Of a stretch of 56,191 nt of DNA, positions 1 through 37,218 are shown piece after piece. The DNA lies in the IMG/VR virus record IMGVR_UViG_3300027608_000002, positions 1-56,191 of that record; one strand, 5' to 3'. The notes beneath the pieces were generated by a model that had not been told where the DNA came from, made no database searches, and saw only the letters and a program-made list of their open reading frames with translations. How positions within the stretch are numbered: the stretch's first letter is position 1; every line of letters starts with the position of its first letter. Made by a program: the position numbers and the translations under genes. This DNA is from a virus. Lineage: Duplodnaviria; Caudoviricetes.

Positions 1-127
1 TCTATCACCCATACGATCCACTCCGGTGTAACCAGTACGTTGGGCTGTTTCATCAGCGCGTCTTTCAGCATTATTTTTCAGACGCATAGCACGGTCAAAT
101 AAAGCAGTTTGAATACGCAAATCCGCA
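1..127. repeat. 127-bp terminal direct repeat, copy 1 (circular assembly overlap)
   Basis: Identical to 56065-56191; one ORF reads through the join. Confidence 0.97.
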
Positions 128-1362
128 TTATTCGTTGAATCTTTCATTCCTTGCCTTGCATTGTAAGCGTCAGCGTACCGATCGTCCATAAGCCGATCAG
201 CCATTGCAGTCTCTGCACTTTCTGAACGTTGAGCATAGCCTCCGCTCTTCAAGCCCTTCATCGACTTCTGCGAGTCGTGCTTGTCATCAGCCTTTGACGC
301 TTCCCACTGCTTCATGGTCATGCCGCGCTTGGCCGCGAGCTTCTTGTCTTGGGCCTGATCCTTTGCAGAACCTTCGAATTTAACCTTGCCGCCACGCTTC
401 TGGCCATTTGGAGGCAAACGACTCAAACCATTGTATTCGTCTCTTCCAAATTGTTCGAATGCGTTCATATCTGCTTGTCGTTTGTCAGAAATACGATTTG
501 CACGCATATCCATCATCGGAGAGGCTTGCGGTTTTGGTTTGGCAAGATCCGTAGAATACATTTTGCCTTTGTACTCAAACGTTTTTGGGCCACCTGAAAG
601 CATTGCGGCACGACCCGCCTTAAATGCTTCGCCGAATGAACCTCCGCCAGCCTTGTGGGCACGACCGCCCTTCTTCAAACCATATCCGGTTTCTTGATGA
701 GCACGACGTTCTGCCGCCTGAGCTGCCAAAGCTGGTCCAATTGTTTTTTTGATGTCTTCTTTAGCCATCTCATAAACAGCAGGGTCTTCACGGCGAGCGT
801 ACATTTTATCAGCAACTTTTTCGGCGTCCGATGTTTTTCTAAACGAATCGTACATTTTGCCTTCGGCTTTAGCGTACTCAGTGCCTTCAGAACGCATTCC
901 GCCATTTGCTTTGCGAACAGCACCACCCTTCTTCATCGCACCCGCGGCCCGACCCATCATTTGGTTCTGCTGACCAATTGGGTTCTCGCCGATCGGGCCA
1001 CCGCCAAACTTCTTGGCCTTTCCGCCGTTTTTCAATCCACCAACGTGAGCCATGCCGCCTTCGCGGACTTCATTCGCCATCTTCTGATCACGGTTGATCA
1101 GATTGTCTGGCGTCAGATACCGCTTTGAACGAGAACTGCGATCCGCACGAAATTCTGCTTTCTCACCATCGGCTTTGCCAACGACTTTGCCACCCTTTTT
1201 ATATGCCCGTCTGCTGAGAGGGCGCATGCCCGTCTTAACATCGGTGTTCAAGGGTTCAGATGGTGACCAAGTTGACGAATCAACTTTCTGGCTTGAGTCA
1301 TTTGCCAAACGCTTTGCCTTTGCCTTCATCGCGGCGCGTGCGGTTTTTGCAGTCTCTGACAT
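1..1362 (-). CDS. 5' part of a 711-aa basic, modular, xxGG-repeat late protein spanning the contig join (continues 56064->55291)
   Basis: Manual translation: ATG at 1362 with [28 protein letters not shown]..., no stop to base 1, in frame with ORF 55291..56184; missing from the ORF track. Confidence 0.9.
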
Positions 1363-1406
1363 GGTATTCTCCAAGGAGTTAGTACGGGCGTCCCCGCTTG
1401 CTGCAA

Positions 1407-4400
1407 TCATGAGGGGGGACGGTGCGTATGCAGCGACACACCGACTTTGCTAAGAGCATGCTTAACAATTTTAGAATTATGAACTTGATTGTACGATTTT
1501 GCAACGCCACCCGATTTCATGCCTCCTTCAAATTCCTTACAGGATCCGTCTGGATTAAAAATTTTGCATTTTGGCTGGAGAGGTTGAACGATTGGGTCTC
1601 GGCGATTGTCACTGGTCATCGGAGCAGGAGGGTTGCCGGAGTTGCCCAAGAAGTCCAACCAACCGCCACCAACAGGGTTCCCGAATTCATCGTTCTTCGC
1701 TTCAAAGCGCGAATTGTCGGGTTGATTGAATTTATTCCCGAGGTACCTTCCGCCAATCGAACCGAGTGGTCCGAACGCAAGTCCGCCCAAAACAGACCCA
1801 ATGTTGCCGCCCATATTGCCAAAGAAGCTATCGTTTCCGCGTTGAGGAGGCATTGGTGCGCCGCCGCCACCAATGTTGAAACGATCATTGCTGTTGTCGG
1901 GACGGTTGTCGGGGCGATTGTTGCTACTTGGTCCCGCGGTCTGTGTGCCGGATCCGGCGTTGTAGTTTCGATTGGCGTCGCGAGAAGTTACCGCAGAGCG
2001 ATTTGCGTCTGCCGCACCGCCTGGGTTATCGCCAGTACGAACATCGCCGCCATAGTCATACCCAATGCGACCGCCGCGAGCTTCTGTGATCTTTGGCTTT
2101 GACGGATCAAAGTTGCCGTTGTTGCCTATTGCAGATTTAATCTGGTGAGGGTGGAAGGCAACCCATTCATAAGGCGTTGTTTTGCCGTCTTCTGTTCGAG
2201 CAGCAATAACACCGTCATGCCCTAATTTTTTAAGCAATTCTGTTTGTGCCGTTGGACTGGTTATATGACCATGACCCAACCGAGCAAGAGAATGTTGCAT
2301 CGCCATCGCACCAGAAGAAGAATCAGGGTGCGTAACAATAAATGGATTTTTCATTGAAAGATGAACTGGCATTACATTTGGGCCAGAACTTTCTTCAGGT
2401 TTTCCATATTCTGAGTATCCGCTTGCAGCATTTGGGCCAGCAAAATAAAATCCTTTTCCAAAAAAACCAACGTCAGTGTGGTCGCGGTTCTCCCCCATTT
2501 GGACGCCACTATCTCCTGCTGGTGGAGCGTTTAAATTAAATGTGTCAAAATTTCTTTTTGTCCCATGATACAGCACATGCGGCACATCAGGATGATTGCC
2601 TTCTTGGAACGCCGCCAAATTCTCTTCACGCTGTGAATCATCATGGGGAAGCACCTCGCCACCCTGCTCATACTTTCGTTTTACGTCCACGTTCTTGGGG
2701 TCGAACACAACGTAGTTGGTGGTGCCTTTGCCTTTATCACGGCTGTTTTCATCACGATACTTGACGCCGTGGACGCCAGAGCGTTGCAAAAATTCACTTG
2801 CGCCTTGGTAGCCGTTTGGGTGTTGAGTTGCCAACGCCTGATAAAAATCCATACCCGTTGAATCTTTTTCAAAATGTGATTTAAACACGTTAAAAAGCGT
2901 TGGATTATCTTTTCGTGAGTCAAATATGCTTTTAACAATATATGGGCTTTGCTCACTCAGCGGCTTGTTCCAATCGAGCATATGATCGGGATGAGCATTG
3001 ATATTGACCTCGTACATGTGGCCTTGTTTTTGAGGTTCAAATTCTTCATTAGAACCTGAAATTCTATACAAATTAAAATCATTTATATTTTTGCTTGCAG
3101 TTGCTCGATCGCGAAAATCAATGGCAGTTGGTTCATGCTCTGTAAAATACAACCCATGTCCATATGCTTGCTCCCCAACACCTTTTCCAATCTTGGCCAT
3201 GTCAAACTGATCAAAGTCGTGCGGTGAGCCGTGATACGCGGTAATGCCGTCATCAACCTCGCCACCGTCCTTATACTTCCGCTTCACGTTTACGTTTTTG
3301 TGGTCAAACACAACGTAATTGTGAGTGCCTTTGCCTGAATCGCGTGATCCTGCATCGAGGTATCGGACGCCTTTAATGCCAGCGTCTTGAAGGAAATTTG
3401 TTGCTTCCTCCAATGAATAATCTTCAGAAAGATCATTGTACACATGACGGCCTTGTGGGTTTGCACCGTGCCTTCCAGAACGATCTTCAATTCTTTCTTT
3501 AGTCCAAGGCCACCACTCTGTTTTATTTAAAGCATTTTTTACATAATCTGACTGCTCATCAATGGTTTTATCCCAATCAAGCATATGATCTTGATGCGCG
3601 TTAATTGAAACCTCATATGTGCGAGGTCCAGCAATCTTTCCACTTCGAAGATGATCTGCCCCTTCTTTATATTCTTCGGCAAGAAGACGATCGCCTTCTT
3701 CAGCGTCAGGACCGTTTGCATAACGACCAGGTATTGCTTGATCAGAGTGATATGCGTGTGATCTATCAAGAGAAGCAATTGCTTTATCGCGATCAAACTT
3801 GTTTGCCCACAATGCTGCAGTAGCGTGACGCTCTGGGCTTGATTTCATTTTATTCATAAACTGGTTATAATATTGACCACCTTGACCGCTTACCTCTGGG
3901 TTTTCAGCAAAATACAACCCATGACCATACATTTGGTTGCCTTCGCCCGTGCCGATCTTGGCCGTGTCAAATTCATCAAAATCATGCGGAGATGAATGGT
4001 ATGCGGTGATGCCGCCGCCGTTGTCTTTGTGGGGTATGGGTTCTATCTGGTCTTGTATGGCGTCAACAATATGTTTCGGTGCCGAACCTTCCCGCCAATC
4101 AGTATTCACTGACCCGTCTGGGTCAACCCAGAAGAACCCCGCGTCACCTTGTTTCATAGCATCTTGAGACTGAGAAGAAACATAATACGAATGATGAAAA
4201 TCGGCGGCTTTAGCCCGTTTGTATGGATGCACTTCACGAATAAATCCATCATTGGCGTCAAACACGCCAGACCAGAATGGTTTACCTTTGTGAATTGCTG
4301 TATCCATCACTCTGCCGCCATCTTCTTTGTGAGGCACGTTGGTAGCATCATTTTTAACCATACCAAGGATATCCTCGGTTGGCGTATCAAGGTCAAACTT

Positions 4401-4931
4401 GCCAATTCTTGTGGCAACTTCTGGATTATGGATTGACGCTTCAGTTAAACCAATCGGCAAGTGTTGAAATTGCACATCTGCAGCCTGTCTGAGCCTTTCA
4501 TACGCACGGTTAGAATATAACCAAGAATCGCCTTCTTCCGGTGTTCCTTTAACTGCTTTATATTTGTCATTAATGGCTCTGTACTCGGCAAGTTCTTTTT
4601 CTGGATATCCGCCTAAGCCTTCTATTTTTCTTGGGTATCTTGGAAATTTTGTGTTGTCGTCATTGTCGCCATTCCATGAAGTTGAAATTGATTTTGGAAT
4701 TTTAAAAACATGAACAGCTTTATCTCCATATCCATATTTCTTGGAATAGTGTTTTGCATAATCAATGGCATATGCCGCACGTTTTGGATCTTCATGGTCG
4801 ATTACAAAACTGTACAAGCCTTTTCCAAGTGGTCGAATGTTGCCTGGTTCTCCAGAACCAAAACGAGATGGGTTGATTTTGTCAAAATCAGACCCCCCAT
4901 GCACGACGTACAAGGAATCATCACTCATCAC
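1407..4931 (-). CDS. Large polyvalent protein with four ADP-ribosyltransferase-like (ART-PolyVal type) domains
   Basis: Repeated [YV]HG[STG]/YHS ... G.G[LF]Y[FS] ... V.[IL] ... G..G[VI] ... [YW]V[VA]F units separated by xxGG linkers; TGATG coupling to upstream gene (ATG at 4928). Confidence 0.75.
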
Positions 4932-7900
4932 AGTCTCCCCGTGAACATAGGTTGGCCAACCTTGCCCGTATCAATGTGGAAACCAGATATTGCACGAACC
5001 GGATGGATAAATCCACCACGGGCTTCGTTCATTCTTGGTTTTGACGGATCAAACGTGCCTTGATTGCCCGACGCAGACTTTATCTGCTCCGGATCAAAGG
5101 CAATGTAGCTGTCTTGCGCCTCGGGATAAACCTTTTTGAACGCATCGTCGCCGAGGTGGCTTAGATTTTCAGGACTTGGTCGTTTGCCTAAATCATTCAA
5201 ACCTTCGCGACGGTTTAAGTAAACAATGCCGTCGTGGCCGTGTTCTTTTAAAGCGTTTTGAAGTGCCTCTTGTGGTTCAGAGTTTTCTAAATATTTAAAA
5301 CTTTTTTCCACTATTTCTTTAGACAATTGAGCCATAACACGCCGAGCAGAAAAAGAACCGTTGTCTTGCAAACGAATTGGATTCTTGATGTTCAGGTGAA
5401 CGGGGTACATGTGCCCACGTTGTTCCGGTTCAGATCCGGTAAAATCATTTCCTTGTTCTTGTGGCCCAAAATGACTGCCCATCTCACTGGATTTGGTATC
5501 AAACGTTTCAAAATCTCGCGTTGGACCGTAAACGTCATTAGAGTCTGTTTCGTCAAGGTATGCATCGGACATAGGTGACAAAGGTTTTCGATATTGGCCG
5601 CGAGTGCCATGATAAAACACCTTCGGAGACCCGTCAGGATTTTTTAAAGATGGGTGCGCGTCTTTGTGAAACTCAGCCAAGCTCTCCCCACGGCGTGGAT
5701 CGTCGTGAGGAATGTAGTTTTCCTGATGCTTGGCGAGCTTCTCGTGTAATGTAGGCTCGACTTCGCCGCCTTCTTTGTAGGCATGCCATACAGAGCCTTC
5801 AGCACCACCGCCAGAAGATTTCTTTTTGGGAAGAGGCGTTCTTAACGGCCCCGTAAACGGTATCCCCGATCGAGACATGCGCTTGGTTGCATCATCAATA
5901 AATTCAGAATGACTATCTTTCACCCTCGACGCTAGGTCTTTGAAGCCTTCCTCGGATGCGGTGAGATAAGTAAGTCTCTGTTTGTAGGTATTCCAAGCTT
6001 TTTTGCCTCCGCCAGTGAGAGCGTTGGATCCTTGGGGTCCGTTGAGGATTTTCCGTGCGTCACTTTGTGAGAGGCCGGAAGCGACCGATTGATCGATGAA
6101 TTCATTTCGTATCCTTTTTAAAAGTTGTTTTTTAAGATCTGTGTATTCTGAAGCCGTATTATACACAGATTTATAATCGTGCGCCATGATTTTTCCAGTT
6201 GGATATAAATTTCCTAATGACTGGTCAGCAGCTTGTCTTAATTTGTTATGGTCAATACCATGAGCTCCGTCATCATCAAAACGAGGAATAGTATCAAACA
6301 TGTATCCATTTGGATGCCGCATAAAACTCATATCATGGCCAATATCTGACAATTTCTGAGCAAGTTTACGAATGTGTTGCGGTTCAATCGTATCGGTTGT
6401 TGGAACAAACAAAGAGTGGCCGCGGATATAACCATTCTGTGGATTTTGGTTAGGATCCGCCATATGAATGGCTGATGTGGCCATTGCATCTTGTTTTAAA
6501 TGTTTGCCGACAATTGCATGCATCATTGCAATCTGTTCATCATCCATATTTTTAAGAGGAACACGGATATTGGGCGATACAGCCCCCTCAAACGTTCCAC
6601 CCGCGTCAAATGGGTTTTCACTGGTGGGTGCCGTAATGCGCGTGATATCCGAATTGCCGCTTACATCCCCCGTAATGGCCTTTTTAAGCATATCCCAAGG
6701 GTGTTTTCCGCGAGATGAATGGAACATCGCGGTTGTTAGACCTTTGAGGTACTGGTCTTGCGATATTTGATCATCATTATCGACCGCATGGCGGTATAAT
6801 TCAGCCGCTTGGGCACCAACAGGCGTTTGGGTCGTGCCAAACTCAACGGTTGATTTAGGCGCGGCTCTGAACCCAGGCGTTGTACGCCGCAAAGCATCGG
6901 CAAACTTCGGATGCATAAAAGCTTCACGAGTTATTTTGTCGCCTTCAATGCCTGGAACACCCGCATTTTGAAGTTTTTTAATAAGTCCGCCCCAAACCTG
7001 ATGATAAGCATCGCCAGATGGTTCATTCCGAAGGTGAACCCACGCAGGGGCTTGAAAATTCCAACTCTGATATTGGAATGGAAGTTCATGACCATGCACA
7101 TTGTTATACAAATCGCGAATTTTGTTAAAATATAACGCCATTGGCTCATGTAAAGACTGGTTTGACGACATAACATCGTCAGGAACGCCAAACATTTTGC
7201 CAACCCAAACGTCATTGACGGAAATTGGAAACCTTGTTGGTACGCCGCCTGTCAAAGCAAGCGTATCAGAGAAGTGCCCCGTCTTGTTCCCAGGCAAAGC
7301 TGACGATCCACCAGAATGCGAACGCGACAAAGCCTGTCTTACGGTTGATGGAATCGTTAAATCAACGTCCGCCGGAACGCCGCGCAAATGTTGGGATAGC
7401 ACGCCAAGACCTCTTTCAAGGTTTTCATCTGGTTCTGCACGAGCAGATGTCGCCCCAACAAGATCCATGCCCTTTAAATATTCTTCTGGCGTCAATTCTG
7501 GCATATTCTCAGCCATTTTTTCACCAGAAAGCTCATACCAAAGGTGGTCACGGAACGGCAATGACATGGATTTGTCCCAGTCTTGCGATCCAAAATGAGG
7601 TTTTACGTCATGTTCCGTCACCGCATTCTTGGCGGCTTGAGAGCTTTCACCAACGGATTGCTCCCAAAGATTTTGCAATACTTCATTGCCACCCTTATGC
7701 GCCTCGGCAAGAGCTTGAGCAGTGCTATTTGCATATGCTTGATGAAACTTACTGTCAGGATCCGCCGCAAGGTTTGACAAAGCAAGCTTGTGCGCACTGT
7801 CTGCTTGCCGGATTTGGGGCGTAATTTTAAACCCAACGCCTGGGCTATCAAGAAATTGTTTTGGTGAATCAGCCCAACGGCCTCCATTAGGAGCTCCCGC

Positions 7901-8872
7901 TGTGTAAGTGCCGCCAACAACTCGATCTGCTTCTGGAACGATGGTGCTCAAACGTTGGTTAACAATATTGCTCCCAACTCGCGTGTCAGCCCGAGCCGCC
8001 GCAACTTCTTGTGGCGTTGGAGGTGCTGTTGTGGGTTGCATCGGTTGCCCACGTTGGAGAATGGAACCAATCGTAACAGGTGGAGTACCACCGCTTGCCA
8101 ATCTAACTTGCTCAACAGGCTTAACTGACTTAGCTAACCCCAACACTCCGCCGCCGTCCGCTTTGACAATGATGTGATGGTACACGGGGTGCTCTTTCTG
8201 CTCTTTTCTTTTCACCAAGATGGATCCGACTTGTGGTCCGAGGTCAATATTGCCTCGAGTTGTCGGGCGGAGCCTTGGCTCGGAAGGCAAGTTTTCATAC
8301 CGCGCCAGATCGACGCCCTTGGGGAAATGAACGTTCAATGCATAGTAATGCTTGCCACGGTGCTCTACAGAGACAATTGTGTTGGTGTCCTCGTGGCCTT
8401 CAGGGGCATCTTGCCACCGCCATCCCGCCTTTTGCTTAAACAGGTTGGTCTTGGCAACCGCGTTGCCCTTGCCGGACGTGCCCGTCTCATCCACTGCATC
8501 CCTCGAAGCTGTGAAATAAGGTTTCCCGCCACTGCCGATGCCGATCGAAGCCGCCGCGGATTTGTGGCCAGTCATGTCTTGCTTGTCGGGCATTGATAGA
8601 TACTGCCCACCCGCCGGACGATCATCCTCGGGGAACATGCGTTGCGGCTTAGGAAACACCGACATCGGGTTCTGGATGTCGGGAGTTACGTCGCCGCCAT
8701 CCGCACGAACCTGACGAGGAACGTTTGGCATGAACTTCGAAGACGGGAGCTCCTGTCCACCAGCTCGTTCCTTCGCCATCTTTGCGCGGCGCAATTCAAG
8801 TTCGCCACCTTCCGACAGCCTTACTCGAGCAACGGGCTTAACACTCTTGGCAAGTCGGATGGCGTCATTCAT
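4928..8872 (-). CDS. Large polyvalent protein: unknown domain, HhH/DUF7178-like domain, C-terminal ART-like domain
   Basis: WYE..ATS..N..GNKTGHF..NDVW..FQAPAW pattern; C-terminal FYHGT..YPVHLNIKNP..GHDGIVY..YIAFDPEQIKSA; ATGA overlap with portal. Confidence 0.7.
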   Translation of the reverse strand: MNDAIRLAKSVKPVARVRLSEGGELELRRAKMAKERAGGQELPSSKFMPNVPRQVRADGGDVTPDIQNPMSVFPKPQRMFPEDDRPAGGQYLSMPDKQDMTGHKSAAASIGIGSGGKPYFTASRDAVDETGTSGKGNAVAKTNLFKQKAGWRWQDAPEGHEDTNTIVSVEHRGKHYYALNVHFPKGVDLARYENLPSEPRLRPTTRGNIDLGPQVGSILVKRKEQKEHPVYHHIIVKADGGGVLGLAKSVKPVEQVRLASGGTPPVTIGSILQRGQPMQPTTAPPTPQEVAAARADTRVGSNIVNQRLSTIVPEADRVVGGTYTAGAPNGGRWADSPKQFLDSPGVGFKITPQIRQADSAHKLALSNLAADPDSKFHQAYANSTAQALAEAHKGGNEVLQNLWEQSVGESSQAAKNAVTEHDVKPHFGSQDWDKSMSLPFRDHLWYELSGEKMAENMPELTPEEYLKGMDLVGATSARAEPDENLERGLGVLSQHLRGVPADVDLTIPSTVRQALSRSHSGGSSALPGNKTGHFSDTLALTGGVPTRFPISVNDVWVGKMFGVPDDVMSSNQSLHEPMALYFNKIRDLYNNVHGHELPFQYQSWNFQAPAWVHLRNEPSGDAYHQVWGGLIKKLQNAGVPGIEGDKITREAFMHPKFADALRRTTPGFRAAPKSTVEFGTTQTPVGAQAAELYRHAVDNDDQISQDQYLKGLTTAMFHSSRGKHPWDMLKKAITGDVSGNSDITRITAPTSENPFDAGGTFEGAVSPNIRVPLKNMDDEQIAMMHAIVGKHLKQDAMATSAIHMADPNQNPQNGYIRGHSLFVPTTDTIEPQHIRKLAQKLSDIGHDMSFMRHPNGYMFDTIPRFDDDGAHGIDHNKLRQAADQSLGNLYPTGKIMAHDYKSVYNTASEYTDLKKQLLKRIRNEFIDQSVASGLSQSDARKILNGPQGSNALTGGGKKAWNTYKQRLTYLTASEEGFKDLASRVKDSHSEFIDDATKRMSRSGIPFTGPLRTPLPKKKSSGGGAEGSVWHAYKEGGEVEPTLHEKLAKHQENYIPHDDPRRGESLAEFHKDAHPSLKNPDGSPKVFYHGTRGQYRKPLSPMSDAYLDETDSNDVYGPTRDFETFDTKSSEMGSHFGPQEQGNDFTGSEPEQRGHMYPVHLNIKNPIRLQDNGSFSARRVMAQLSKEIVEKSFKYLENSEPQEALQNALKEHGHDGIVYLNRREGLNDLGKRPSPENLSHLGDDAFKKVYPEAQDSYIAFDPEQIKSASGNQGTFDPSKPRMNEARGGFIHPVRAISGFHIDTGKVGQPMFTGRL

Positions 8873-11205
8873 TGCGGTTGCTTTCCTGTGATGGCCGGAA
8901 TCACACTGCCGAGGAGCCGGATAACTTCGTCCTCGCTCTCAGGATGAACCGCGAGGTTCTGCGCCAGATCAATCATCTGGATCCGCTCTTTGGCAAGCAT
9001 CTCTTGCTCTTCGACGGCACTGTCGCGCTCATCCTTCTGCATACTGGCCTGAAGCGAAGCGGCTTTCAACTTGGTGTCCATCACCTTGGCGTCGGCCATC
9101 TGCTTCTTGATCTGGAGATCCGCGGCATCCTTTTCAGTCGGCCCTTGCTGTTCACCACCCGCAAGACCTTCTTGCTGTGCCTTGGCCATGTCAAGTTGAA
9201 GACGAGCCTGATCCAACGCAATCCGAGCCTGTGCTGCGCCTTGCTTCGTATCGGCATCTTGCTTCTTGATCTGCATCTCGGCCATTTCCTTCTGCATTTC
9301 AGGAGGAGGAGAGCCTTGCGCCTCTGGCGGAATCATGAACTGCTCAGGGTTCGACCAACCCACCGCCTTCAACGCCGCGGTGTCGATCGCAATCGGATCG
9401 TACAGCGTCGGGTTCGATGCCTGAATTTGCTTCAACGCCATGATCTTCATGAGCCGTTGCGTCTGGCTCGCGGTGTTAGGATCAGCTTGCGGGACGAGAT
9501 CAACTTGGTTCACACCACGTAAGAAGGTTTCTTGATCCCATGCACGCGCAGGCTTGCGGTTCTTTTGCCAGAAGCTCTCAGGGTTTTCCTTAAAGCACTG
9601 GACAAGGAGCGCGAACTCTTCGGCCTGAGAGGCGTGCATCCGCTTATGCACCGCGTTCAGAACCTTGGTGGCCTGATCGATCAGCGCGATTGTCGTGCCC
9701 ACGGGGGCATCCGCCCGACCTTCACCCACGGCGGCTTCGGCTGTGCCGCCAATGCGCATGCCTGTTTGAGCCATGTTTTCGATGAGGGCCATCAATGTTT
9801 GAGATGGTTCCTTGTATGGCAGAGGCATCACGGCCTGACTGATCGGCATGCCGCCCGTCTTGACCAAAGCCCCACCGCCTGGCGGAACGCGGAAGATGTT
9901 GGTGTTCTGGCGTGCGCCAGTGTCGGCATACAGGAAACCTGGGAAGTTGGCATACATTCCCGCATCCAACAGTTCTCTTTGTGCGGCAGTAATGGCGTTG
10001 GTCGTGTTGCCCAAGATGTGGAGCAAGCCGATGTCATAGAAACCCATGCCAGGAACGAAGGTGTACTTCACGAAGTTCTGCCGAGCTTCGGGAAGTTCCT
10101 CGGTATCCTCGTCATAGTTGCGCACGATCGATAGGATCTCGTGCGACGATACATCGATTGTCACCCGATACGGGATCTCGAGGCCAGTCTCTTTGCCTTT
10201 GTGCTTATGCTCGAAGCCGTTGACGTCCAGTTCGCAATAGCACTCGTAGATCTCGCGATCCCGATCGTCAGGGTTTGACTGCCCCGCGCTGATGCCCTGT
10301 TGCGACTTCTTCTCGCGCTGTGTCGCATCAAGATCAACTTGCTTAGGGGTGGAGAGATCCAAGTCCTTGTACGCACCAATGATCTGCATGCGCTTCACCA
10401 CCGATGGCCGCATCATTATGCGATGCGTAACGCGCTTGGCGTTGCTCAGATCGGTGGCCGCGTTGTTGACGATCATATCGTCGGCGTCAACTGATTCGGA
10501 AACAGGACGGCCTCTGAGTGGACAGAAGTAGACTTTCTTGAACGCCGTGCCGCCAAAGCCCAACATGAGAAGCATGCGGTCGGTGTCAGGATAGTACTCT
10601 CTGGCTGTGGAGGTAAGGTAGTGGTTGAGGTCTTTCTCGAGATCGTTGGCAAGCGTATCACTATCAAGGGTGGCATTGTTGTTGTCCTCCCGCACCTTGA
10701 CGGGCCCGTCGGTCGGGAGCAACTCGGAGCGTGCATTGGCTTGGAACCGGAGCACCGCCTCGAGCAACAGAGGATGCCGCACTTTGCTCATGCCCTCGAC
10801 CGGAGCACCGTCTGCCGCACCCGAGATGCCAGGCAACTCGATCCGGAGCCCGAGGAGCTTGATGCCCTGAGCACGATCCTCAATCCACTCCTTGCGGGAG
10901 TCGAGGTCGTCCTGAATGCCGCGCATGAGGTCTTCGGAGATGCGGGACAGTTCCATCGCGGGGATCTCGTCCACCAGATTTTCGAACCATCCGTTGGTGC
11001 CCTCGGCCCCCGCCTTCTCGAGCGGACCACCGTCGAGCTTCAGGGTGATGGAGCCGTCATCGTGCTCGATCGTCAACAGGTTGCCTTTGTCATCGAACTC
11101 GTGCTGATCGCCACCCTCGTCCGCCATCTCGATGATTACGCCATCTTCGATCGAATCTCGATCATCGATCGGGGCAGGTTGGCGAATGTTGGGGACAAGC
11201 GACAT
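8869..11205 (-). CDS. Portal protein
   Basis: 778 aa directly after TerL; HPLLLEAVLRFQA, GTAFKKVYF, YTFVPGMGFYDIGL, Q-rich coiled C-terminus. Confidence 0.85.
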   Translation of the reverse strand: MSLVPNIRQPAPIDDRDSIEDGVIIEMADEGGDQHEFDDKGNLLTIEHDDGSITLKLDGGPLEKAGAEGTNGWFENLVDEIPAMELSRISEDLMRGIQDDLDSRKEWIEDRAQGIKLLGLRIELPGISGAADGAPVEGMSKVRHPLLLEAVLRFQANARSELLPTDGPVKVREDNNNATLDSDTLANDLEKDLNHYLTSTAREYYPDTDRMLLMLGFGGTAFKKVYFCPLRGRPVSESVDADDMIVNNAATDLSNAKRVTHRIMMRPSVVKRMQIIGAYKDLDLSTPKQVDLDATQREKKSQQGISAGQSNPDDRDREIYECYCELDVNGFEHKHKGKETGLEIPYRVTIDVSSHEILSIVRNYDEDTEELPEARQNFVKYTFVPGMGFYDIGLLHILGNTTNAITAAQRELLDAGMYANFPGFLYADTGARQNTNIFRVPPGGGALVKTGGMPISQAVMPLPYKEPSQTLMALIENMAQTGMRIGGTAEAAVGEGRADAPVGTTIALIDQATKVLNAVHKRMHASQAEEFALLVQCFKENPESFWQKNRKPARAWDQETFLRGVNQVDLVPQADPNTASQTQRLMKIMALKQIQASNPTLYDPIAIDTAALKAVGWSNPEQFMIPPEAQGSPPPEMQKEMAEMQIKKQDADTKQGAAQARIALDQARLQLDMAKAQQEGLAGGEQQGPTEKDAADLQIKKQMADAKVMDTKLKAASLQASMQKDERDSAVEEQEMLAKERIQMIDLAQNLAVHPESEDEVIRLLGSVIPAITGKQPQ

Positions 11206-13276: not shown

Positions 13277-13301
13277 GCACCGCCCCTGATTTGTGGTGCG
13301 A

Positions 13302-13330
13302 AGCATACGACAAAAGGAGAATAGCTTCAA
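13302..13330 (-). promoter_or_regulatory. sigma70-like promoter upstream of terS
   Basis: TTGAAG-17 nt-TATGCT on - strand, ~25 nt before terS ATG. Confidence 0.55.
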
Positions 13331-30227: not shown

Positions 30228-32213
30228 TTAGATCCCTCTGTTAGCGACAGCCAGTGCTTTCGCAACGGTTGTGTCATCAAGATTCAGCAAAGACGACGTG
30301 TCCTTGCCTTGCTCTTTTTTAATACGATCGGCCATTGCGATCAAGGCCATTGCCTTGGCGATAGGGTCTTTTGACATGGTGCGACCGCCGGAGGCTCTGT
30401 CAATACGACCGCCTCGAGCGTTCTGTTGTCTATTGTATAGCTCTTCAATTTGATTTCCAGCCTCTTCTTCTGCTTTTTTATCAACAAGCCGATTATAAGC
30501 AGAGTCTAAATTTGATTGGAAAGGAGTTATTACACGCGCCGCGGTAGGAGCGGCGGAAACTAGGCTTTTTGCGGATCCCGTAAGAAGATTCCTGTCCATT
30601 GCGCCAAGCGTCTTGGCGGTTCCTGTTGTCAAACCAGGCGACCCAAGAGCAAATTTACTTGTCTGTCCAGCCAAGGCCGCTGCGCCCAACAATGGTTGAC
30701 CTTGCGCGAATGCAAAACCAGCCCCCACTGGCAAAGCAAAATCTTCAAAGCCACCCTTAAAAACTTTAGAAGGCGAAGCCGCGCCAAGAAGAGCGGCTCC
30801 TATTTCAGGGTTTTGCTCAGACATAAGGTCAAGATAACTTTTCCCAACAGGGTTTCTTCTACTGCTCATTATGCGTTTGTATTGAGCAACTTGATTCATT
30901 TTAGAACCTGTTGCGGCTGTAATCCCACCCATTTCATTTTGGATGTCTTGAAATTCTTGCATCAATTTTGCGTAATCTGGATCCCCGTATTTGGTCAACG
31001 ATTTTACAAGCTCAGTATGAATTGGAACCAATGCATCAGACAACGTGGGGTTTGCTGTTCTGTTTTCAGTAATAAGATCCCACAATTGTTGTTTTTGCTT
31101 GTCCAAGCTCAACAAGTTTTTTTCAGGATGGCCAGGAGGCAAAGCATCAATTTGATGCATTTTCTGAAACAAACCTTCATTTATTGTTGCGCCTGTTTTT
31201 GGATCTTTTGTTCCAACTAAAAAATCAAGAGCAGATTGTGCTTTAGGAGACAATTTATAAGCTGGATCCCCCAGAGCTTGAATCTCATCTGATGTCTTCA
31301 TTAAAACATCTGTTAAAGGAATGTCTTGATTAGCAAGATTTTGTTTTTTTGACGCCCATTCGTTAATTTTGTTTTGGCGGTATTCTTTAACCCAACTGTT
31401 CACATTTTGCATGAGTCCTTGAGGGTCACCTCTGCCAGATGCATACTGTTTAAAAACTTCGCGAAGTTTAGGTGCATTATCACCTGTTTGGGCAAACAGA
31501 TCTTTGATTGCTCCAAAATCGTCAACACCAGATAGGCTTGAAGCTGCGTTAACAAGCCCTTTACCCCCCAAGGAAGTAAGCCCAATAGCAGAAGTTGCAG
31601 GGTCCGCGTATTTTGTTGCTTCTGCAACATTTCCTGCCTTCCTTGCAACATCCAAGGCTTTAGCCACGTTTGGAAGATTAGCGGCTTCAGCAACGCGGCT
31701 TGTTGTGCCAGCAACTTTAGACAGCGTCCCGCCAAAACCGCTAATAGGCAACGCGGCAAGAGATGCTGTTCCTATAGGATCTTCTTTAAAACGTTGGCCA
31801 AATTCTTTCCATTTTTCAGGATCAAACCCCTGATATCCTCCATCCATTGTATATTTGAAAACAGGTGGAAGACCCTTGCCAACATCTGATGCAAGGGCTC
31901 TTTCTTGTTCAATTTGAGCAAGATTTTCGCCATAACCTTGACGACGTGCTTGCATCTTCTGAACAGGTGTAACTGCTGTTTCAGGTATGGGCTTGCCTGC
32001 ATTAGGAGGCAAGTAATCATCTCCCAAAAAATTATATATAGCTCCGCGGCCAAGAGTGCCCAATCCCTCAATTGTTTGAGGAAGATTTCTAAGATCTAGC
32101 CCTTGAACAAGACCTTCACCATATTTTTTTGCAGATGGCCCTATGTTGCTCCAAGTTTCTTTAAGGTACTCAGGCCAAGTTTGATTTTTTGCGTCATCGT
32201 TTTGATCAACCAT
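30228..32213 (-). CDS. Putative internal virion / DNA ejection protein
   Basis: Position at end of virion cluster, helical A/G/L-rich, C-terminal ARGG..ASGG. Confidence 0.6.
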   Translation of the reverse strand: MVDQNDDAKNQTWPEYLKETWSNIGPSAKKYGEGLVQGLDLRNLPQTIEGLGTLGRGAIYNFLGDDYLPPNAGKPIPETAVTPVQKMQARRQGYGENLAQIEQERALASDVGKGLPPVFKYTMDGGYQGFDPEKWKEFGQRFKEDPIGTASLAALPISGFGGTLSKVAGTTSRVAEAANLPNVAKALDVARKAGNVAEATKYADPATSAIGLTSLGGKGLVNAASSLSGVDDFGAIKDLFAQTGDNAPKLREVFKQYASGRGDPQGLMQNVNSWVKEYRQNKINEWASKKQNLANQDIPLTDVLMKTSDEIQALGDPAYKLSPKAQSALDFLVGTKDPKTGATINEGLFQKMHQIDALPPGHPEKNLLSLDKQKQQLWDLITENRTANPTLSDALVPIHTELVKSLTKYGDPDYAKLMQEFQDIQNEMGGITAATGSKMNQVAQYKRIMSSRRNPVGKSYLDLMSEQNPEIGAALLGAASPSKVFKGGFEDFALPVGAGFAFAQGQPLLGAAALAGQTSKFALGSPGLTTGTAKTLGAMDRNLLTGSAKSLVSAAPTAARVITPFQSNLDSAYNRLVDKKAEEEAGNQIEELYNRQQNARGGRIDRASGGRTMSKDPIAKAMALIAMADRIKKEQGKDTSSLLNLDDTTVAKALAVANRGI

Positions 32214-32216
32214 AAC

Positions 32217-35200
32217 TTACTCCTTTGCGCCTTGGATTTCTCGCCCGTCAGGGAGAATAACCATAACACCTTTTGGCGTTTCTCTGATTATTCTAAGAAT
32301 TTCCTTGTTTGGTGTGTTTGGGGGAATAGCAACAGTGTTATCGTCTTGAATAACTGGTTCTTTTGGAGTTCCAAGCCCCATACTTTTAAGTACGTCAGGG
32401 TTAGAACCTGCAAAAGGTTTAATTTCTTTTTTGGCGTTTGAAATAAACAAATTAGCATCGTTTTCAGGATTTTCTCCAAAATTCATATTGAAAACAGAAA
32501 CATCACGAGGTTTATTTTTAATGAACTCAGAAGACCTCTTGTAACCAAGATCTCCATACCCCACTGCGTCTGTAATGTTTTTATACAGAGCATCAGGATT
32601 TTTTTCTGGGTCAGGAACGGTTACCATTGCCATTTCGCCACCTGCTGCGGGGGCTGATTTTGCAAATTCATTTGTTCTTGTAATAGCAATCAACATTGCA
32701 TCTTTTGCTGCCGCATCAAAATTTGGTGCCGCTTCGGCATCAAATCCTTCTATTCCAAAGATATTTCTCATGAAATCATTAAGTTGCGCAAAACCTTGTG
32801 AGCCTCGGCCTGCACCTTTCCATTGTTGATAAATACCAGCAAGGCTTATAAGGCGAGGGCGAAGATCTGATTTCCAAGATCTGACAAAATTATTTGATTC
32901 TTTTAACTGGTCATTAAACATGTCAACATTGGCTTTAGCCGTAGGGTCTTCACCCGTTACAACTTTGCGTCCTTTATATGTAAATTCACCAGGCGTCCCA
33001 CTTTCCGCGGCATCGGCCAACCCTTTGAGATAATCAACGCCAGTAATCCCAATCTTTTGCCCCGTTTGCGGGTCATAAACAGTTTGGATTGTGTTAGCTA
33101 CTGACGCAATTTGAAGTTGCACATTGTTCAGTTTTTCAATTTCTCCTTTAATAACATCTGCTTGTGCTCCTCTTGCAACTCCAAGTTGGCGGTTTAATTT
33201 TTCAATTGTCGATTGGATCACAGCCGGATCTGACAAATAGGAAAGTGGAACAATTTTTCCCTCGCCCAAATCAACTGTCTTTTCTTCCGCAACAGGTTTT
33301 TCTCCAACAGATCCAAGACCACTTTCGTCTATGGTGCCCCCGCCTTCTATTACTTTACCCGCTCCTCCAAGGCCTTCCCCACCAACTTCAGTTGTGCCGG
33401 ATGGAGACGTTTTTTCTGCGCCGCCAAGTCCGGTTATTGAAGAAGACAAATTAAGTTCGTTGGCAGCACTACTCATTATGCGGCCATACTCTTCAACGCT
33501 CACTTCTCCTCCATTCAGATCACGATAGCCAATAATTTTACGGCCAGTCGCATCCATAAGAGGTTCAAAACGATCTTGCAGATATTTAAGAGCTTGGATC
33601 CCTTGGGTCCGCCCAGTAATATCAATTCCCTGTTGCGCAAGGCCGCGCTCGAGAGACTGGCCACGGAGCCCTGCATACGTCTTCGCGCCTCCGCCAAGAC
33701 CTTGCAATAGTGCGGCACCAAGATACGGACTGTTTGACGAAGCCATTGTGCCAACGCCGCCCAAAACTGACAACAGAAGATCGGTGGAATCCGGACCTTC
33801 ACGGTTTTTACTTTTTACGTCTTGTGCGCTTGATTTTGAAAACCCAACTGATTCAGCAAGTCTATCAATCATTGATTGAGATTTAGGTGGGTTCAACCCA
33901 CCTTCGCCTACGTCGGCGGAAGGTGTTGCGTTTTTGGCAGGAAGATCTTTTTCGCCCATAAGTTTCCGAGCAACTGTCCAAGGTTTCCAACCATTTTTTG
34001 CGGCGTAATTATTCGACCAATCAATTGAAGCGCGAATAACGTCTGGGTTTTTTCGAACTTCTGGGTCTCTCAAATCAAAACCTGTTTGCTTGGTAAACTC
34101 ATCTCCAAGACCAGGATTTGAAAATTGTTTTGATGTATTCCCATAATGCAATTGCGCAATGCCGTAAGAAGACTTGTCATCTCCTTCCGCCAAGGGATTA
34201 AACCCGCTTTCCCCATGATAAACTTTTGCCGCAAATTGCGGGTCTTTATGTCCTGCACGTTTGGCAGATTCAATTGCGTAGTTTTTCCAATATTCAGGGT
34301 TTGATTCATCAACTGCGCCATCTGTCGCATAACCCGCACGACCGCCATTCTTCATGAACCCAGAAGCGAGCTTCGCCATGTCCATGATGGCTTTCATCGT
34401 TGGATCTTGCATTGCCCCAGGAAGGTGTTTTTGATCAGGCATTTTAAATTTGGACGTGTCGTCTGGAATGTCGAGCTTTTTTGGGTCGGAGTCCAAATCG
34501 TAAGGCATGCCTCCGGCAGCGTACCCTACAAGGCCACCACGAGCTTCTTCTTTTTTATCCAGATCTTTATAAAATTTATAAAGATCTTTTCCTTTTGTTG
34601 CCAGATCCGCAAAATCTGTTGCGGTCCCAAGACCTTGCTTCAAAAGGCTTTCTGGAATAGGAGGTGCGCTATCGGGAGTCATGAGCCTTCCAACAGGCAA
34701 GCTCGCCTCCGGAACGCGGCCATGCTTGCCAATGCCACCAGACAACCCGCGAGCGGTTGGAACATGGCTACGATCGCCACTGTCAAAGAACCCTTGTTGA
34801 CGGGAAAGGATGTTGTAAATTGAGTATGGGTCGTAAGGATCGTAAGCTCCGCCTCCTGAAGCAAAACCTTGACCCATGTGTTGCATACCAACAGCACCGC
34901 CTTCAGACACCAAACCACCTTCTTCAAAATGTCCGCGGCGAGCGGATTCTTTTGTTGCCGCATCGTAGTCAACAGTCTTGTAACCCTTAGCCAAGCCAAC
35001 GGCTTCGGGGTGGTGCTTTTCAACGTTCTGCGCCGAGAGGCCAATTTGCTTCGGTCCGTCCTCGCCTTTGTAACGGAACTTGATGATGTCCTGACCGTCG
35101 AAGGTCTTACCGATCTTTTCAATGTCGTCTTTGAGCCGCTCATCCGAGAAGAATGGCATTGGCTGAGTTGTGGTTGTGTTCGAGCCGGACAACGCACCAG

Positions 35201-35906
35201 TGCCCATTGCAACGTTCGCAAGGAATTGAGCAACTTGATACGGGTATGCCTGTTCTTGCAAGAACTGGTTGTACAGAGCGGTCTTTCCGGCCTGTTCAGT
35301 CTGTTGACCAAGGGTTCCCGCGCCGATTTGCGCCTGAGATCCCTGTAGCCCCGCCTGTTGGGCGGCAAGGGCTGTTTGACCACGTTGGCCGAGACCTGAC
35401 ATATAATTCTGTGCGGCGTTCTGGAAACCTTGCGATTCCATGCCACCAATCGTCTGACCGAGAGCAAGGTTCTGTTGATTGATCAAGTTCCCCATACCAA
35501 TATTGGCTCGATCGCCGCCGAACGCACCTTGGCCGATCGCGGATCCCTTCATCTGAGCTTGCTGTTGACCCGCAACATTTTGCATCTGATTTCTTGTCGA
35601 GGCGACCGCGCTCTCGAGGTAAGGGTTCATGTAACCCTTTACGCCTTGGCCAAAACCTTCAGTCGTATAACCTTGCTGAACTTGGTTCAAAACAGGTTGC
35701 GCGGCATTGGCATACTGGTTCATGCCAACCTGACCTGTCCTTTGTTGTTCATTCAACGGAGCAACAAATTGTTCCGGAGTTGTGCCGTATTGCTGAAAAG
35801 GCTTTGCGGCAACGCCCTCGGCACGAGTGTTTACGGCATTGTAACGCGCCAAGACTTCGGGAGGAATTGTGGTCGCTGAACTTGTGGTTCCGGTTTTCCC
35901 GCCCAT
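32217..35906 (-). CDS. DNA ejection protein with internal peptidase-S74 chaperone domain and lytic-transglycosylase-like domain
   Basis: MGGK N-terminus, Q-rich GAFGG.R region; FSDERLK.DI..G..AQ.VE...PEAV..VDY; GESGFNP..SYGIAQL. Confidence 0.75.
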   Translation of the reverse strand: MGGKTGTTSSATTIPPEVLARYNAVNTRAEGVAAKPFQQYGTTPEQFVAPLNEQQRTGQVGMNQYANAAQPVLNQVQQGYTTEGFGQGVKGYMNPYLESAVASTRNQMQNVAGQQQAQMKGSAIGQGAFGGDRANIGMGNLINQQNLALGQTIGGMESQGFQNAAQNYMSGLGQRGQTALAAQQAGLQGSQAQIGAGTLGQQTEQAGKTALYNQFLQEQAYPYQVAQFLANVAMGTGALSGSNTTTTQPMPFFSDERLKDDIEKIGKTFDGQDIIKFRYKGEDGPKQIGLSAQNVEKHHPEAVGLAKGYKTVDYDAATKESARRGHFEEGGLVSEGGAVGMQHMGQGFASGGGAYDPYDPYSIYNILSRQQGFFDSGDRSHVPTARGLSGGIGKHGRVPEASLPVGRLMTPDSAPPIPESLLKQGLGTATDFADLATKGKDLYKFYKDLDKKEEARGGLVGYAAGGMPYDLDSDPKKLDIPDDTSKFKMPDQKHLPGAMQDPTMKAIMDMAKLASGFMKNGGRAGYATDGAVDESNPEYWKNYAIESAKRAGHKDPQFAAKVYHGESGFNPLAEGDDKSSYGIAQLHYGNTSKQFSNPGLGDEFTKQTGFDLRDPEVRKNPDVIRASIDWSNNYAAKNGWKPWTVARKLMGEKDLPAKNATPSADVGEGGLNPPKSQSMIDRLAESVGFSKSSAQDVKSKNREGPDSTDLLLSVLGGVGTMASSNSPYLGAALLQGLGGGAKTYAGLRGQSLERGLAQQGIDITGRTQGIQALKYLQDRFEPLMDATGRKIIGYRDLNGGEVSVEEYGRIMSSAANELNLSSSITGLGGAEKTSPSGTTEVGGEGLGGAGKVIEGGGTIDESGLGSVGEKPVAEEKTVDLGEGKIVPLSYLSDPAVIQSTIEKLNRQLGVARGAQADVIKGEIEKLNNVQLQIASVANTIQTVYDPQTGQKIGITGVDYLKGLADAAESGTPGEFTYKGRKVVTGEDPTAKANVDMFNDQLKESNNFVRSWKSDLRPRLISLAGIYQQWKGAGRGSQGFAQLNDFMRNIFGIEGFDAEAAPNFDAAAKDAMLIAITRTNEFAKSAPAAGGEMAMVTVPDPEKNPDALYKNITDAVGYGDLGYKRSSEFIKNKPRDVSVFNMNFGENPENDANLFISNAKKEIKPFAGSNPDVLKSMGLGTPKEPVIQDDNTVAIPPNTPNKEILRIIRETPKGVMVILPDGREIQGAKE

Positions 35907-36420: not shown

Positions 36421-36422
36421 AA

Positions 36423-37211: not shown

Positions 37212-37218
37212 AACGACC

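Follow-up and report, generated by a model that had tools for sequence, protein, structure and literature searches.

A conserved seam peptide, built around a Gly-Gly pair, marks nearly every joint between the modules of a group of phage proteins that are probably carried in the head and injected into the host. Injected cargo represents the fast-evolving weapons of phages against host defences, and a shared seam would explain how this cargo is built, shuffled and delivered. The motif is real and conserved, and it may serve for cutting, for docking or only as a hinge. The best reading, to which we assign a probability of about 0.4, is that the seam is a candidate processing site, as suggested by sequence patterns, predicted structures and analogy with known virion proteins. 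A seam peptide would also give a simple sequence mark for the injected proteins of uncultured phages and a ready-made joint with which to load foreign proteins into phage heads.

The window, i.e. the whole stretch of DNA analysed, comprises 56,191 nt (IMGVR_UViG_3300027608_000002, positions 1 to 56,191), and seams are numbered by its coordinates. It is a complete circular podophage-like genome whose ends overlap by 127 bp, which confirms the gene that a preliminary description had proposed to span the join; its product, J, has 711 aa counted from the Met common to relatives. Cargo genes follow directly after the portal gene, with G1 and G2 placed immediately after terminase and portal through 4-nt overlaps, including one of 4 nt between the G2 and portal genes. 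The product of 53659-54552 has the look of a coiled-coil scaffold. The portal gene and the seam-bearing late genes, whose products (G1, G2, J, E, 30228-32213, 36423-37322 and 49969-50241) are built from interchangeable modules, are arranged as follows:

8869..11205, minus strand: portal gene of SU10 type (Pfam, PHROGs, gene context), 0 motif sites
4928..8872, minus strand: G2, giant polyvalent protein of 1314 aa; leader ends in LSEGG (aa 22); ART-PolyVal at aa 1116-1274 (PF18760)
1407..4931, minus strand: G1, giant polyvalent protein of 1174 aa; ART-PolyVal at aa 784-941 (PF18760), two DUF3990-like modules, Gly/Asn/Pro-rich tail
1..1362, minus strand: 5' part of J, the join-spanning basic protein; profile sites at 1183-1203, 1015-1035, 916-936 and 658-678
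55291..56064, minus strand: 3' part of J; profile sites at 55960-55980, 55939-55959, 55708-55728, 55609-55629 and 55366-55386; a small module matches phrog_7884
32217..35906, minus strand: E, ejection protein of 1229 aa; Peptidase_S74 at aa 254-303 and a transglycosylase-like domain (Pfam, PHROGs)
34335-34928, minus strand: seam cluster of E, GG at aa 330, 336, 351, 457/465 and 521
30228..32213, minus strand: 661-aa protein downstream of E
30378-30422, minus strand: tandem seam of the 661-aa protein, NARGG-RIDRAS-GGRT, GG at aa 601/609
36423..37322, minus strand: mosaic small-module protein; phrog_2423-like and phrog_16028-like modules, conserved C-terminal domain (PHROGs)
49969..50241, minus strand: 90-aa basic protein; three motif copies at 50044-50124, GG at aa 43, 48 and 63

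G1 and G2 are polyvalent proteins bearing ADP-ribosyltransferase (ART) modules. The match to PF18760 (ART-PolyVal) reaches 93.6 bits for G1 and 57.5 for G2 (cut-off 31.2), each polypeptide combines this domain with several unrelated effector domains, and both are phage-encoded beside virion genes. Their other modules are common piecemeal to relatives, and in genomes with portals 97-99% identical the giant genes differ in module order. In common with the polyvalent proteins of phages and conjugative elements described by Iyer, Burroughs, Anand, de Souza and Aravind in 2017 (PMC5512222), G1 and G2 are giant and multi-module, carry ART-PolyVal, lie among virion genes and are presumably packaged and injected. 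In contrast to that class, G1, G2 and J show no peptidase or MuF match in Pfam and PHROGs, i.e. no embedded peptidase or MuF/portal anchor (common, although not obligatory, there), and internal proteins that are not polyvalent also carry the seam peptide here. That study proposed that embedded peptidases, zincin-like or other, do the processing; the words 'glycine' and 'linker' are absent from it.

The seams coincide with the places where homology to close relatives breaks off. GG pairs lie at aa 205, 305, 556, 757, 953/961 and 1141 of G1 and at aa 22, 59, 240, 261, 1021, 1035 and 1286 of G2, and the blocks of DNA homology that the window has in common with relatives (88-96% identity) stop at G1 aa 206, 307, 558 and 953 and at G2 aa 24, 63, 253/262 and 1033-1035. 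The individual seams are:

8798..8818, minus strand: G2 LSEGGEL, aa 22, leader end; L007/L021 homology block stops at aa 24
8687..8707, minus strand: G2 RADGGDV, aa 59 (L007/L021 comparison)
8144..8164, minus strand: G2 KADGGGV, aa 240 (profile, homology blocks)
8081..8101, minus strand: G2 LASGGTP, aa 261; L007 homology block stops at aa 262
5759..5779, minus strand: G2 YKEGGEV, aa 1035; L005/L007/L021/L033 homology restarts at aa 1033-1035
5006..5026, minus strand: G2 EARGGFI, aa 1286, between ART module and C-terminal tail
4308..4328, minus strand: G1 KEDGGRV, aa 205; L005/L007/L033 homology block stops at aa 206
4008..4028, minus strand: G1 KDNGGGI, aa 305; homology blocks stop or begin at aa 307
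3255..3275, minus strand: G1 YKDGGEV, aa 556; L007 block stops at aa 558
2652..2672, minus strand: G1 YEQGGEV, aa 757, directly upstream of the ART module; flank pLDDT <50
2040..2084, minus strand: G1 [15 protein letters not shown], a tandem pair with GG at aa 953 and 961; flank pLDDT <50
1500..1520, minus strand: G1 MKSGGVA, aa 1141, ahead of the conserved C-terminal tail

In L007/L021, exactly 38 aa are missing between the G2 GG pairs at aa 22 and aa 59. A stretch x-x-GG, followed by unrelated sequence, comes after 17/17 distinct ends of DUF3990-like modules and after 19/19 ends of ART modules. Members of the 36423 family have 0, 1 or 2 modules inserted at an A-x-GG seam; in the protein of the window (GG at aa 81, 127 and 239), KAIGGG (37071-37091) and AKAGGG (36933-36953) join the small modules to the C-terminal domain. 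In E, the exchange point of the cell-wall hydrolase domain lies directly behind GGRAGY. Judged from these comparisons, the seam is the point at which modules are swapped, inserted and deleted among close relatives.

What is kept at these points is a peptide. Across 19 sequences of the hypervariable E linker, with identities as low as 31%, no column is invariant other than three GG pairs and a V and a P next to them; G22 and G23 are the sole invariant columns of 22 aligned leaders; and G953 and G954 are invariant across 21 ART modules. Because GG codons vary, with no fixed DNA word, while the GG columns stay invariant, selection maintains the seam at the peptide level and not at the DNA level. 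AlphaFold2 models, calculated from shallow alignments of 19 and 21 rows, place the seam in predicted unstructured flanks between folds: for G1 740-1000 the ART core has a pLDDT of 63-92 and the two seam flanks are <50, and for E 230-660 (a poor model, mean pLDDT 40) the entire seam-bearing linker is <50.

All motif instances listed in the preliminary description are present where it placed them, and its suggestion to compare the loose pattern [KARE]-x-GG with composition-matched shuffles (2000 each, 42 ORFs) gave a divided result. The pattern is enriched in the two pieces of J (11 vs 2.25 and 9 vs 1.97, with 0 shuffles reaching either count), in 36423-37322 (5 vs 0.70, p=0.001) and weakly in 49969-50241 (p=0.036), whereas G1 (5 vs 3.46, p=0.26) and 30228-32213 (p=0.28) stand at composition level and G2 (6 vs 2.88, p=0.07) and E (9 vs 5.29, p=0.08) are marginal only. 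To obtain a sharper profile, GG contexts were taken from the post-portal ORFs of relatives whose portals are at most 80% identical, and 41 window proteins were scanned with it, with 1000 shuffles each. This seam profile, [R/K/Y/F/M]-[K/A]-x-G-G-[R/K/E]-[V/I/A/T], of which a second copy often follows after 7-8 residues, identified a total of 21 sites in 6 late proteins: J 9 (0.17 expected), G1 4 (0.10), G2 3 (0.05), E 2 (0.09), 30228-32213 1 (0.04) and 49969-50241 2 (0.03). Since J, G1 and G2 are homologous to the training sequences, only E, 30228-32213 and 49969-50241 count as independent tests. The other 35 window proteins, including the portal, terminase, capsid and replication proteins as well as 36423-37322, have 0 profile sites; for the replication proteins, terminase and capsid protein the preliminary description had already noted this absence. 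Relatives show the same distribution, with 0 sites in ~126,000 aa of portal, terminase, chaperonin-like, scaffold-like, capsid and tail-side proteins and 33 sites in 28 ORFs homologous to E, 22 of which have at least one.

The residues next to GG are also constrained: modules that are unrelated to each other show biases at positions -3, -2, +1 and +2, and Lys occupies position -2 in roughly half of all sites, Ala in roughly a third. Both acidic (YKDGGEV, FEEGGLV) and basic (KKGGKV, NRGGRT) variants occur, and GGR[IV]GY is found even in a pelagiphage with a portal only 34% identical. The tandem spacing of about 8 residues noticed earlier is genuine: 100 distinct post-portal ORFs from relatives contain 156 GG-GG pairs at distance 8 vs 9.4 in shuffles (16-fold) and 61 at distance 7 vs 9.3, counts that are not independent because these ORFs are interrelated.

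How might such a seam be used? The preliminary description regarded it as domain-boundary punctuation serving for cleavage or cargo loading; the punctuation stands, in late and probably internal or injected proteins, but for cutting no protease was found and for loading no partner. As a processing site, the seam would be cut at or directly before GG by an endopeptidase, in the head or after injection. Such cutting would take off the ~20-residue leader, set the effector modules free and break J up into small basic peptides. Of 41 distinct first post-portal ORFs, 30 begin with such a leader, its GG end falling at residues 19-29 (4.1 expected), and this fixed length with a GG end matches the layout of cleavable leaders. 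Searches of the late proteins with Pfam, PHROGs and NCBIfam returned no protease and, in agreement with the earlier impression, no recognisable MuF domain or prohead protease; HExxH is absent from late ORFs and present in only two early-region ORFs. The D-S-G of 36423-37322, considered as a protease clue, is not conserved. As a phage-encoded endopeptidase is not recognisable, the enzyme would probably belong to the host or be a virion protein of unfamiliar fold. Among the complete cargo ORFs listed, none ends in GG as a cut product would, and module release fails to account for the spacing of 5-8 residues between motif copies in J and 49969-50241.

The model for seam cutting would be the tape-measure protein pb2 of T5. 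An unidentified enzyme cuts it after R1127, with two residues left ahead of GG (PMC10038345). In the deposited pb2 sequence the site reads FVPR/AEGGMMYPG (slash, cut) and holds the sole GG after residue 490; it scores 2.7 bits, below the profile threshold of 4, and the cut precedes A-E-G-G instead of following GG. Likewise, lambda gpH is converted to gpH* and gpHC by a cut in its glycine-rich C-terminal region, the site and catalyst being given as unknown in PMC12617516. The only two profile hits of gpH, at aa 736 and 781, fall within this region (2 vs 0.05 expected, p=0.002). Both are ejected virion proteins cut beside or within a glycine-rich stretch, but both belong to siphophage tails and are cut only once, compared with many seams here, and share only the short motif, with flanks devoid of detectable homology. 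The profile of the 36423 C-terminal domain reaches 2.1 bits against gpH (equalled by 86/2000 shuffles, not significant) and does not match pb2, and 14 late proteins of T7, including the internal core proteins, contain 0 profile sites. If the seam is a cutting site, the cutter and cut position of gpH and pb2 become testable. It is rather unlikely, though worth stating, that one endopeptidase, most likely of the host, reads [R/K/Y/F/M]-[K/A]-x-G-G-x-[V/I] and cuts phage cargo, T5 pb2 (R1127/AEGG) and lambda gpH alike. In that case the gpH cut would fall on or next to F-A-T-G-G (aa 733-737) and leave a C-fragment of 12.2-12.5 kDa, and the cargo polyproteins would yield separate effectors and small basic peptides.

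Other processing systems resemble the seam in part. Phage T4 uses a capsid targeting sequence, and its own prohead protease processes internal proteins and Alt, cutting after Glu. The present phage resembles it in a short N-terminal leader, of putative targeting function here, on presumably head-packaged and injected proteins, including an ADP-ribosyltransferase; unlike T4, the head module here has no T4/P1-type prohead protease gene detectable by Pfam, PHROGs or NCBIfam, and the seam is built on GG. Clan CE cysteine proteases, packaged in adenovirus and African swine fever virus, cut core proteins at Gly-Gly-X with a hydrophobic P4. These are also internal virion proteins of dsDNA viruses, in which GG is cut inside the particle, but the viruses are eukaryotic, whereas here no protease was found and K or A stands two residues before GG. 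Double-glycine leader peptides are cut by C39 peptidase transporters, and they too have ~20 residues ending in GG. However, phage cargo is not an export substrate, the motif is also internal and in many copies, and no scanned protein contains a C39 domain in Pfam or NCBIfam.

Alternatively, the seam may remain uncut and serve as a multivalent handle, an explanation that we consider doubtful. Strands of ~8 residues flanked by GG would dock on a repeated site in the particle (the capsid inner face, the portal, DNA or other seam strands), and the long cargo chains and J would thereby be anchored many times over, so that they can be packed and ejected in order. The dense arrays of J and 49969-50241, the enriched 8-residue period, the residue preferences on either side of GG and the restriction to presumed internal proteins are consistent with docking. 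Furthermore, according to PMC10172136, a cargo domain of phiCrAss001 is bound to the portal wing, and crass-like phages store large proteins in the particle, partly unfolded for ejection, as may be the case here; the words 'glycine' and 'cleav' are absent from that paper. The C-terminal half of 36423-37322 gives a weak lead to the crAss_CARG1 family (protein atlas score 0.85), with no Pfam match. Against a handle, acidic and basic variants would need one common partner, no binding partner was found, and the number of seams tracks the number of joints. Two elements that the preliminary description had not set apart from the motif, the leader and a pair of conserved C-terminal tails on cargo proteins, are better candidates for a loading address.

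An equally tentative explanation is a passive joint, in which GG is a flexible or turn-forming hinge read by nothing, modules unfold and refold singly while threading the tail, and the pattern persists because only exchanges in neutral linkers give working chimeras. The low-confidence flanks, the exchange breakpoints at seams, the variable DNA word and the failure to find a reader or protease (Pfam, PHROGs, NCBIfam, HExxH) all suit a hinge. Yet a plain hinge does not need conserved neighbours, the GG pairs stay invariant where the surrounding linkers are unalignable, and the pelagiphage shares GGR[IV]GY despite its distant portal. Even a mere hinge would document unusually precise module exchange.

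Much less probable is a modification site, with the Lys or Ala at -2 as the target of a GNAT-type acetyltransferase encoded between 36423-37322 and E:

35908-36426: GNAT-like gene (phrog_1249, E=0.00022)

Its match to Acetyltransf_7 is weak and falls short of the 27-bit cut-off (20.8 bits, E=0.00053). The gene keeps its position in MW202675.1, and 19 distinct GNAT homologues occur in E loci, but the share of Lys at -2, only about half with Ala in about a third, speaks against this function. Finally, an origin by chance or glycine-rich composition, although compatible with the loose-pattern counts in G1, G2 and E, is scarcely credible and is refuted by profile sites far above composition shuffles, 0 sites in the control protein classes of relatives, invariant GG columns and a spacing sharply peaked at 8.

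The Gly-Gly peptide [R/K/Y/F/M]-[K/A]-x-G-G-[R/K/E]-[V/I/A/T], here called the seam, confirms the preliminary observation in a sharpened form and is supported as a punctuation mark of the probably injected modular proteins of this phage. The same 127-bp repeat stands at both ends of the window (1-127 and 56065-56191), so the contig is circular, about 56.06 kb long and a whole assembly. Its arbitrary start cuts in two the gene of J, a basic 711-aa protein spanning the join. The genes relevant to the seam are the following.

Late genes of the window, in gene order
12842-13330, minus strand, small terminase
11217-12845, minus strand, large terminase
8869-11205, minus strand, SU10-type portal
4928-8872, minus strand, giant protein G2 with an ART-PolyVal domain
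1407-4931, minus strand, giant protein G1 with an ART-PolyVal domain
1362..1 plus 56064..55291, minus strand, J, spanning the join
After J, minus strand, chaperonin-10-like protein
53659-54552, minus strand, coiled-coil, scaffold-like protein
Between the scaffold-like and capsid genes, minus strand, two small proteins
51423-52337, minus strand, capsid protein
After the capsid gene, minus strand, tail-side genes including an SU10-type adaptor
Internal-protein block, minus strand: 36423-37322, a GNAT-like gene, E and 30228-32213
32217-35906, minus strand, ejection protein E (1229 aa), carrying Peptidase_S74 and transglycosylase-like domains

The portal and G2 genes, and likewise the G2 and G1 genes, overlap by 4 nt. 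The ART-PolyVal (ADP-ribosyltransferase) domains of G1 and G2 score well over the Pfam cut-off, and both proteins belong among the polyvalent proteins (Iyer et al. 2017). Portal similarity groups the phage with uncultured freshwater phages, the portal of MW202675.1 being 68% identical; farther relatives (27-34% identity) are Pelagibacter phages HTVC027P and HTVC023P, Roseobacter phages CRP-901 and CRP-902, and some Caulobacter phages. A portal relative was encoded in 592 of 598 candidate stretches from IMG/VR, and the best 80 loci were retained.

All motif instances listed in the preliminary description were found in the window. The comparison it suggested, of [KARE]-x-GG counts with composition shuffles, came out mixed over 42 ORFs: enrichment was strong in J and the mosaic protein 36423-37322 and weak in the 90-aa basic protein 49969-50241, and none was found in G1, G2, E or 30228-32213 (p=0.26, 0.07, 0.08 and 0.28, respectively). 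In G1 this loose pattern does no better than chance, and its excess in G2 and E is marginal; it was rejected as the motif definition and replaced by a position profile. The profile was learned from GG contexts in 97 post-portal ORFs of relatives, excluding 13 loci with portals at least 87% identical to the window's, and a two-class mixture assigned 375 of 866 distinct contexts to the motif class. The resulting consensus, with which raw context counts agree, is [R/K/Y/F/M]-[K/A]-[K/S/D]-G-G-[R/K]-[V/A/T/I] with a second GG 8 residues later. This tandem spacing is real, as a GG-GG distance of 8 was observed 156 times against 9.4 in shuffles.

Among 41 window proteins, the profile found 21 sites, distributed over J (9), G1 (4), G2 (3), E (2), 49969-50241 (2) and 30228-32213 (1), each count far exceeding that protein's own shuffles; the remaining 35 proteins had none. 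Homologues of J, G1 and G2 are present in the training set, and those of E, 30228-32213 and 49969-50241 are not. In the relatives, 28 E homologues hold 33 sites. The profile matched nothing there in some 126,000 residues from other protein classes: portals (64 ORFs), large terminases (62) and small ones, chaperonin-like and scaffold-like proteins, capsid proteins and tail-side proteins. J and 49969-50241 carry dense arrays with motifs 5-8 residues apart, and the seams of the 36423-37322 family take the form A-x-G-G-G, below the profile threshold. The 298-aa product of 44540-45436 (phrog_2295, function not assigned) is 35% glycine and has 48 GG pairs, yet no seam-profile site.

The boundaries of exchangeable modules coincide with these GG pairs. 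In DNA comparisons with four loci at 88-96% identity over their common parts, homology blocks end at residues 24, 63, 253/262 and 1033-1035 of G2 and 206, 307, 558 and 953 of G1, matching GGs at 22, 59, 240/261 and 1035 and at 205, 305, 556 and 953, respectively. In one relative, precisely the 38 residues separating two GGs are missing; as an exception, one block begins at G1 926-930 with no motif near. After every one of 17 distinct ends of a DUF3990-like module and 19 of the ART module come two residues, a GG and then unrelated sequence, and in 21 aligned ART modules the downstream GG never varies. In the 36423-37322 family, conserved N- and C-terminal parts are joined directly, via a 45-residue module, or via 45- plus 175-residue modules, with every insertion at an A-x-GG seam. 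The small modules match PHROG families whose profiles span only 50-66 positions, which suggests that they exist elsewhere as separate small proteins. Furthermore, the linker of E that leads from the S74 domain to the cell-wall hydrolase is unalignable among relatives except for three invariant GG pairs with an adjoining V and P, and the hydrolase domain is swapped immediately after GGRAGY. At the hydrolase (window 33900-34300; loci L090, L091, L103 and L108), at least three unrelated sequence forms follow GGRAGY.

As boundary evidence, clusters of protein-level end-points are only modest. A listed motif stands no more than 10 aa away from 5 of 17 clusters in G1 (1.95 by chance, p=0.036) and from 4 of 14 in G2 (1.51 by chance, p=0.058); with profile sites alone the numbers are 3/17 and 1/14, not significant. 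Seven of the eight clusters having at least 10 end-points contain a motif, at a cut-off picked post hoc with the data already seen.

Loci L005, L007 and L021 have portals 97-99% identical to the window's, and their G1/G2 modules differ in number and order from those of 1407-8872, so exchange must have been very recent. In L021 (5470-9841), the G1 homologue is split into two ORFs by a break inside a module, which a frameshift or assembly error may explain. A DNA-level recombination signal was rejected because the GG codons and flanking DNA are not fixed; as the codons vary and the GG residues are invariant, selection acts on the peptide.

Structure prediction places the seams outside folded domains. 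In an AlphaFold2 model of G1 740-1000, covering one module and both its seams (21-row alignment), the ART core has pLDDT 63-92 and both seam flanks fall below 50. For E 230-660 the model, built from 19 rows, is of low overall quality (mean pLDDT 40), with the whole seam-bearing linker below 50 and the motifs lacking regular structure. The possibility raised beforehand, that motifs fall inside folded domains, is thus not borne out in these two models; together with the breakpoints, module ends, insertions and E linker, they support the earlier proposal that the motif delimits modules.

What does the seam do beyond marking joints? Our first-ranked reading, to which we give a probability of roughly 0.4, is that it may be a processing site. 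The cutting enzyme could come from the host, which would fit the result of family-profile and atlas searches: no recognisable protease family among the phage proteins scanned. This fit and two cases from other phages place the reading first. T5 pb2 is cleaved after R1127, according to the main text of PMC10038345. The deposited pb2 sequence reads FVPR/AEGGMMYPG at the cut (slash); its GG is the sole one beyond residue 490, with a profile score of only 2.7 bits. In lambda, gpH is shortened by about 14 kDa through a cut in its glycine-rich C-terminal region; site and catalysis were not known to the authors (main text of PMC12617516). Only two profile matches occur in gpH, at residues 736 and 781, both in that region (p=0.002), and cuts there would give computed fragments of 12.2-12.5 or 7.4-7.7 kDa. 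The title of a 1973 study by Zweig and Cummings, cited in both the T5 and the lambda papers, refers to a part played by the host in cutting the T5 tail protein.

Several observations weigh against processing. None of the complete cargo ORFs among those listed ends at GG, the flanks have no homology to gpH or pb2, and 14 late proteins of T7 contain no profile site. The close spacing in the dense arrays also disfavours cutting and would instead suit an uncut multivalent handle, a reading consistent with the sequence preferences on both sides of the GG but one that we consider rather unlikely. It is likewise doubtful that the seam is a passive hinge: the lack of structure around the seams and the precision of the exchange points agree with this, but the invariant GG pairs with biased neighbours would be left unexplained. 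That the seam is the target of the product of the conserved neighbouring GNAT gene is very improbable.

Head-packaged internal proteins are also found in T4 and P1, which have their own protease; the system in the window is similar but lacks that protease. Adenovirus and ASFV core proteins are processed at GG-X, and double-glycine leaders form another GG-based class; the seam resembles both but lacks their defining features. The main text of the polyvalent-protein paper (PMC5512222) proposes embedded peptidases, which the window proteins lack, and the words 'glycine' and 'linker' are absent from that text. A literature search and word searches in the main texts of PMC5512222, PMC10172136 and PMC8954989 turned up no GG seam in phage cargo; T5 figure S5G, the lambda supplements and the polyvalent-protein supplementary alignments may bear on the seam.

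Evidence for wider spread is limited to GGR[IV]GY, present in three proteins of HTVC027P (gp41, gp42 and gp47), plus the lambda and T5 sites. In Caulobacter phage RW, 21 kb of sequence gave a single regex match, in an out-of-frame ORF within the portal gene. When cultured phages were searched with the E linker by tblastn, MW202675.1 was the only hit, so no cultured relative with proteomics could be linked.

Individual candidates for a protease or reader were also considered. An aspartic protease or reader role for 36423-37322 was rejected, since most relatives have another residue in place of the D of D-S-G and no family matched; the protein atlas gave only viral clusters without a name, plus a weak lead to crAss_CARG1, and homology of its C-terminal domain to lambda gpH or T5 pb2 was rejected as not significant. 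The conserved 169-aa head-module protein 53133-53642, which has no assigned function, was rejected as a hidden protease, its atlas matches being unnamed viral clusters only; its similarity to the T7 core protein 6.7 was not significant (E=0.1).

In addition to seams, the cargo carries other conserved features. The first post-portal ORF opens with an amphipathic leader some 20 residues long. Of 41 distinct such ORFs, 30 have their first GG at residues 19-29 (4.1 expected), 23 of them at 22-23; these counts overstate independence because the sequences share ancestry. In an alignment of 22 diverse leaders, the GG columns alone are invariant. At the end of the cargo ORFs stands either of two conserved tails, with a GG before it. 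Since leader and tails occur once per chain and seams once per joint, the leader and tails are more likely to be the loading address, and the seam something else. Complex prediction of the portal with the 62-residue G2 leader region scored 0.23 against a mark of 0.32, a control-free result that speaks neither for nor against an interaction.

The tail H-P-x3-I-P-G-V-H-I ... G-x-P-V-F-T-G is found at 4928-5020 and in the first cargo ORFs of L014, L022, L030, L054 and L077, and closes the first cargo ORF exactly at the start of the next gene. In E, the Peptidase_S74 self-cleaving chaperone domain lies at residues 254-303, about 250 residues into the 1229-aa protein rather than at its C terminus, with a Ser and a Lys five residues later (SDERLK); if active, it would detach the Gln-rich N-terminal part. 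E homologues (window 35886-35906; L085-L110) start with a nearly invariant M-G-G-K-T-G-T-T, and a GNAT-like gene always precedes E; an N-terminal modification is conceivable. Finally, the window's J lacks a His/Cys cluster, H-H-x-D-C-x-C-x-x-C, that stands between seams in many J homologues (L012-L060, last large post-portal ORF) and may bind metal.
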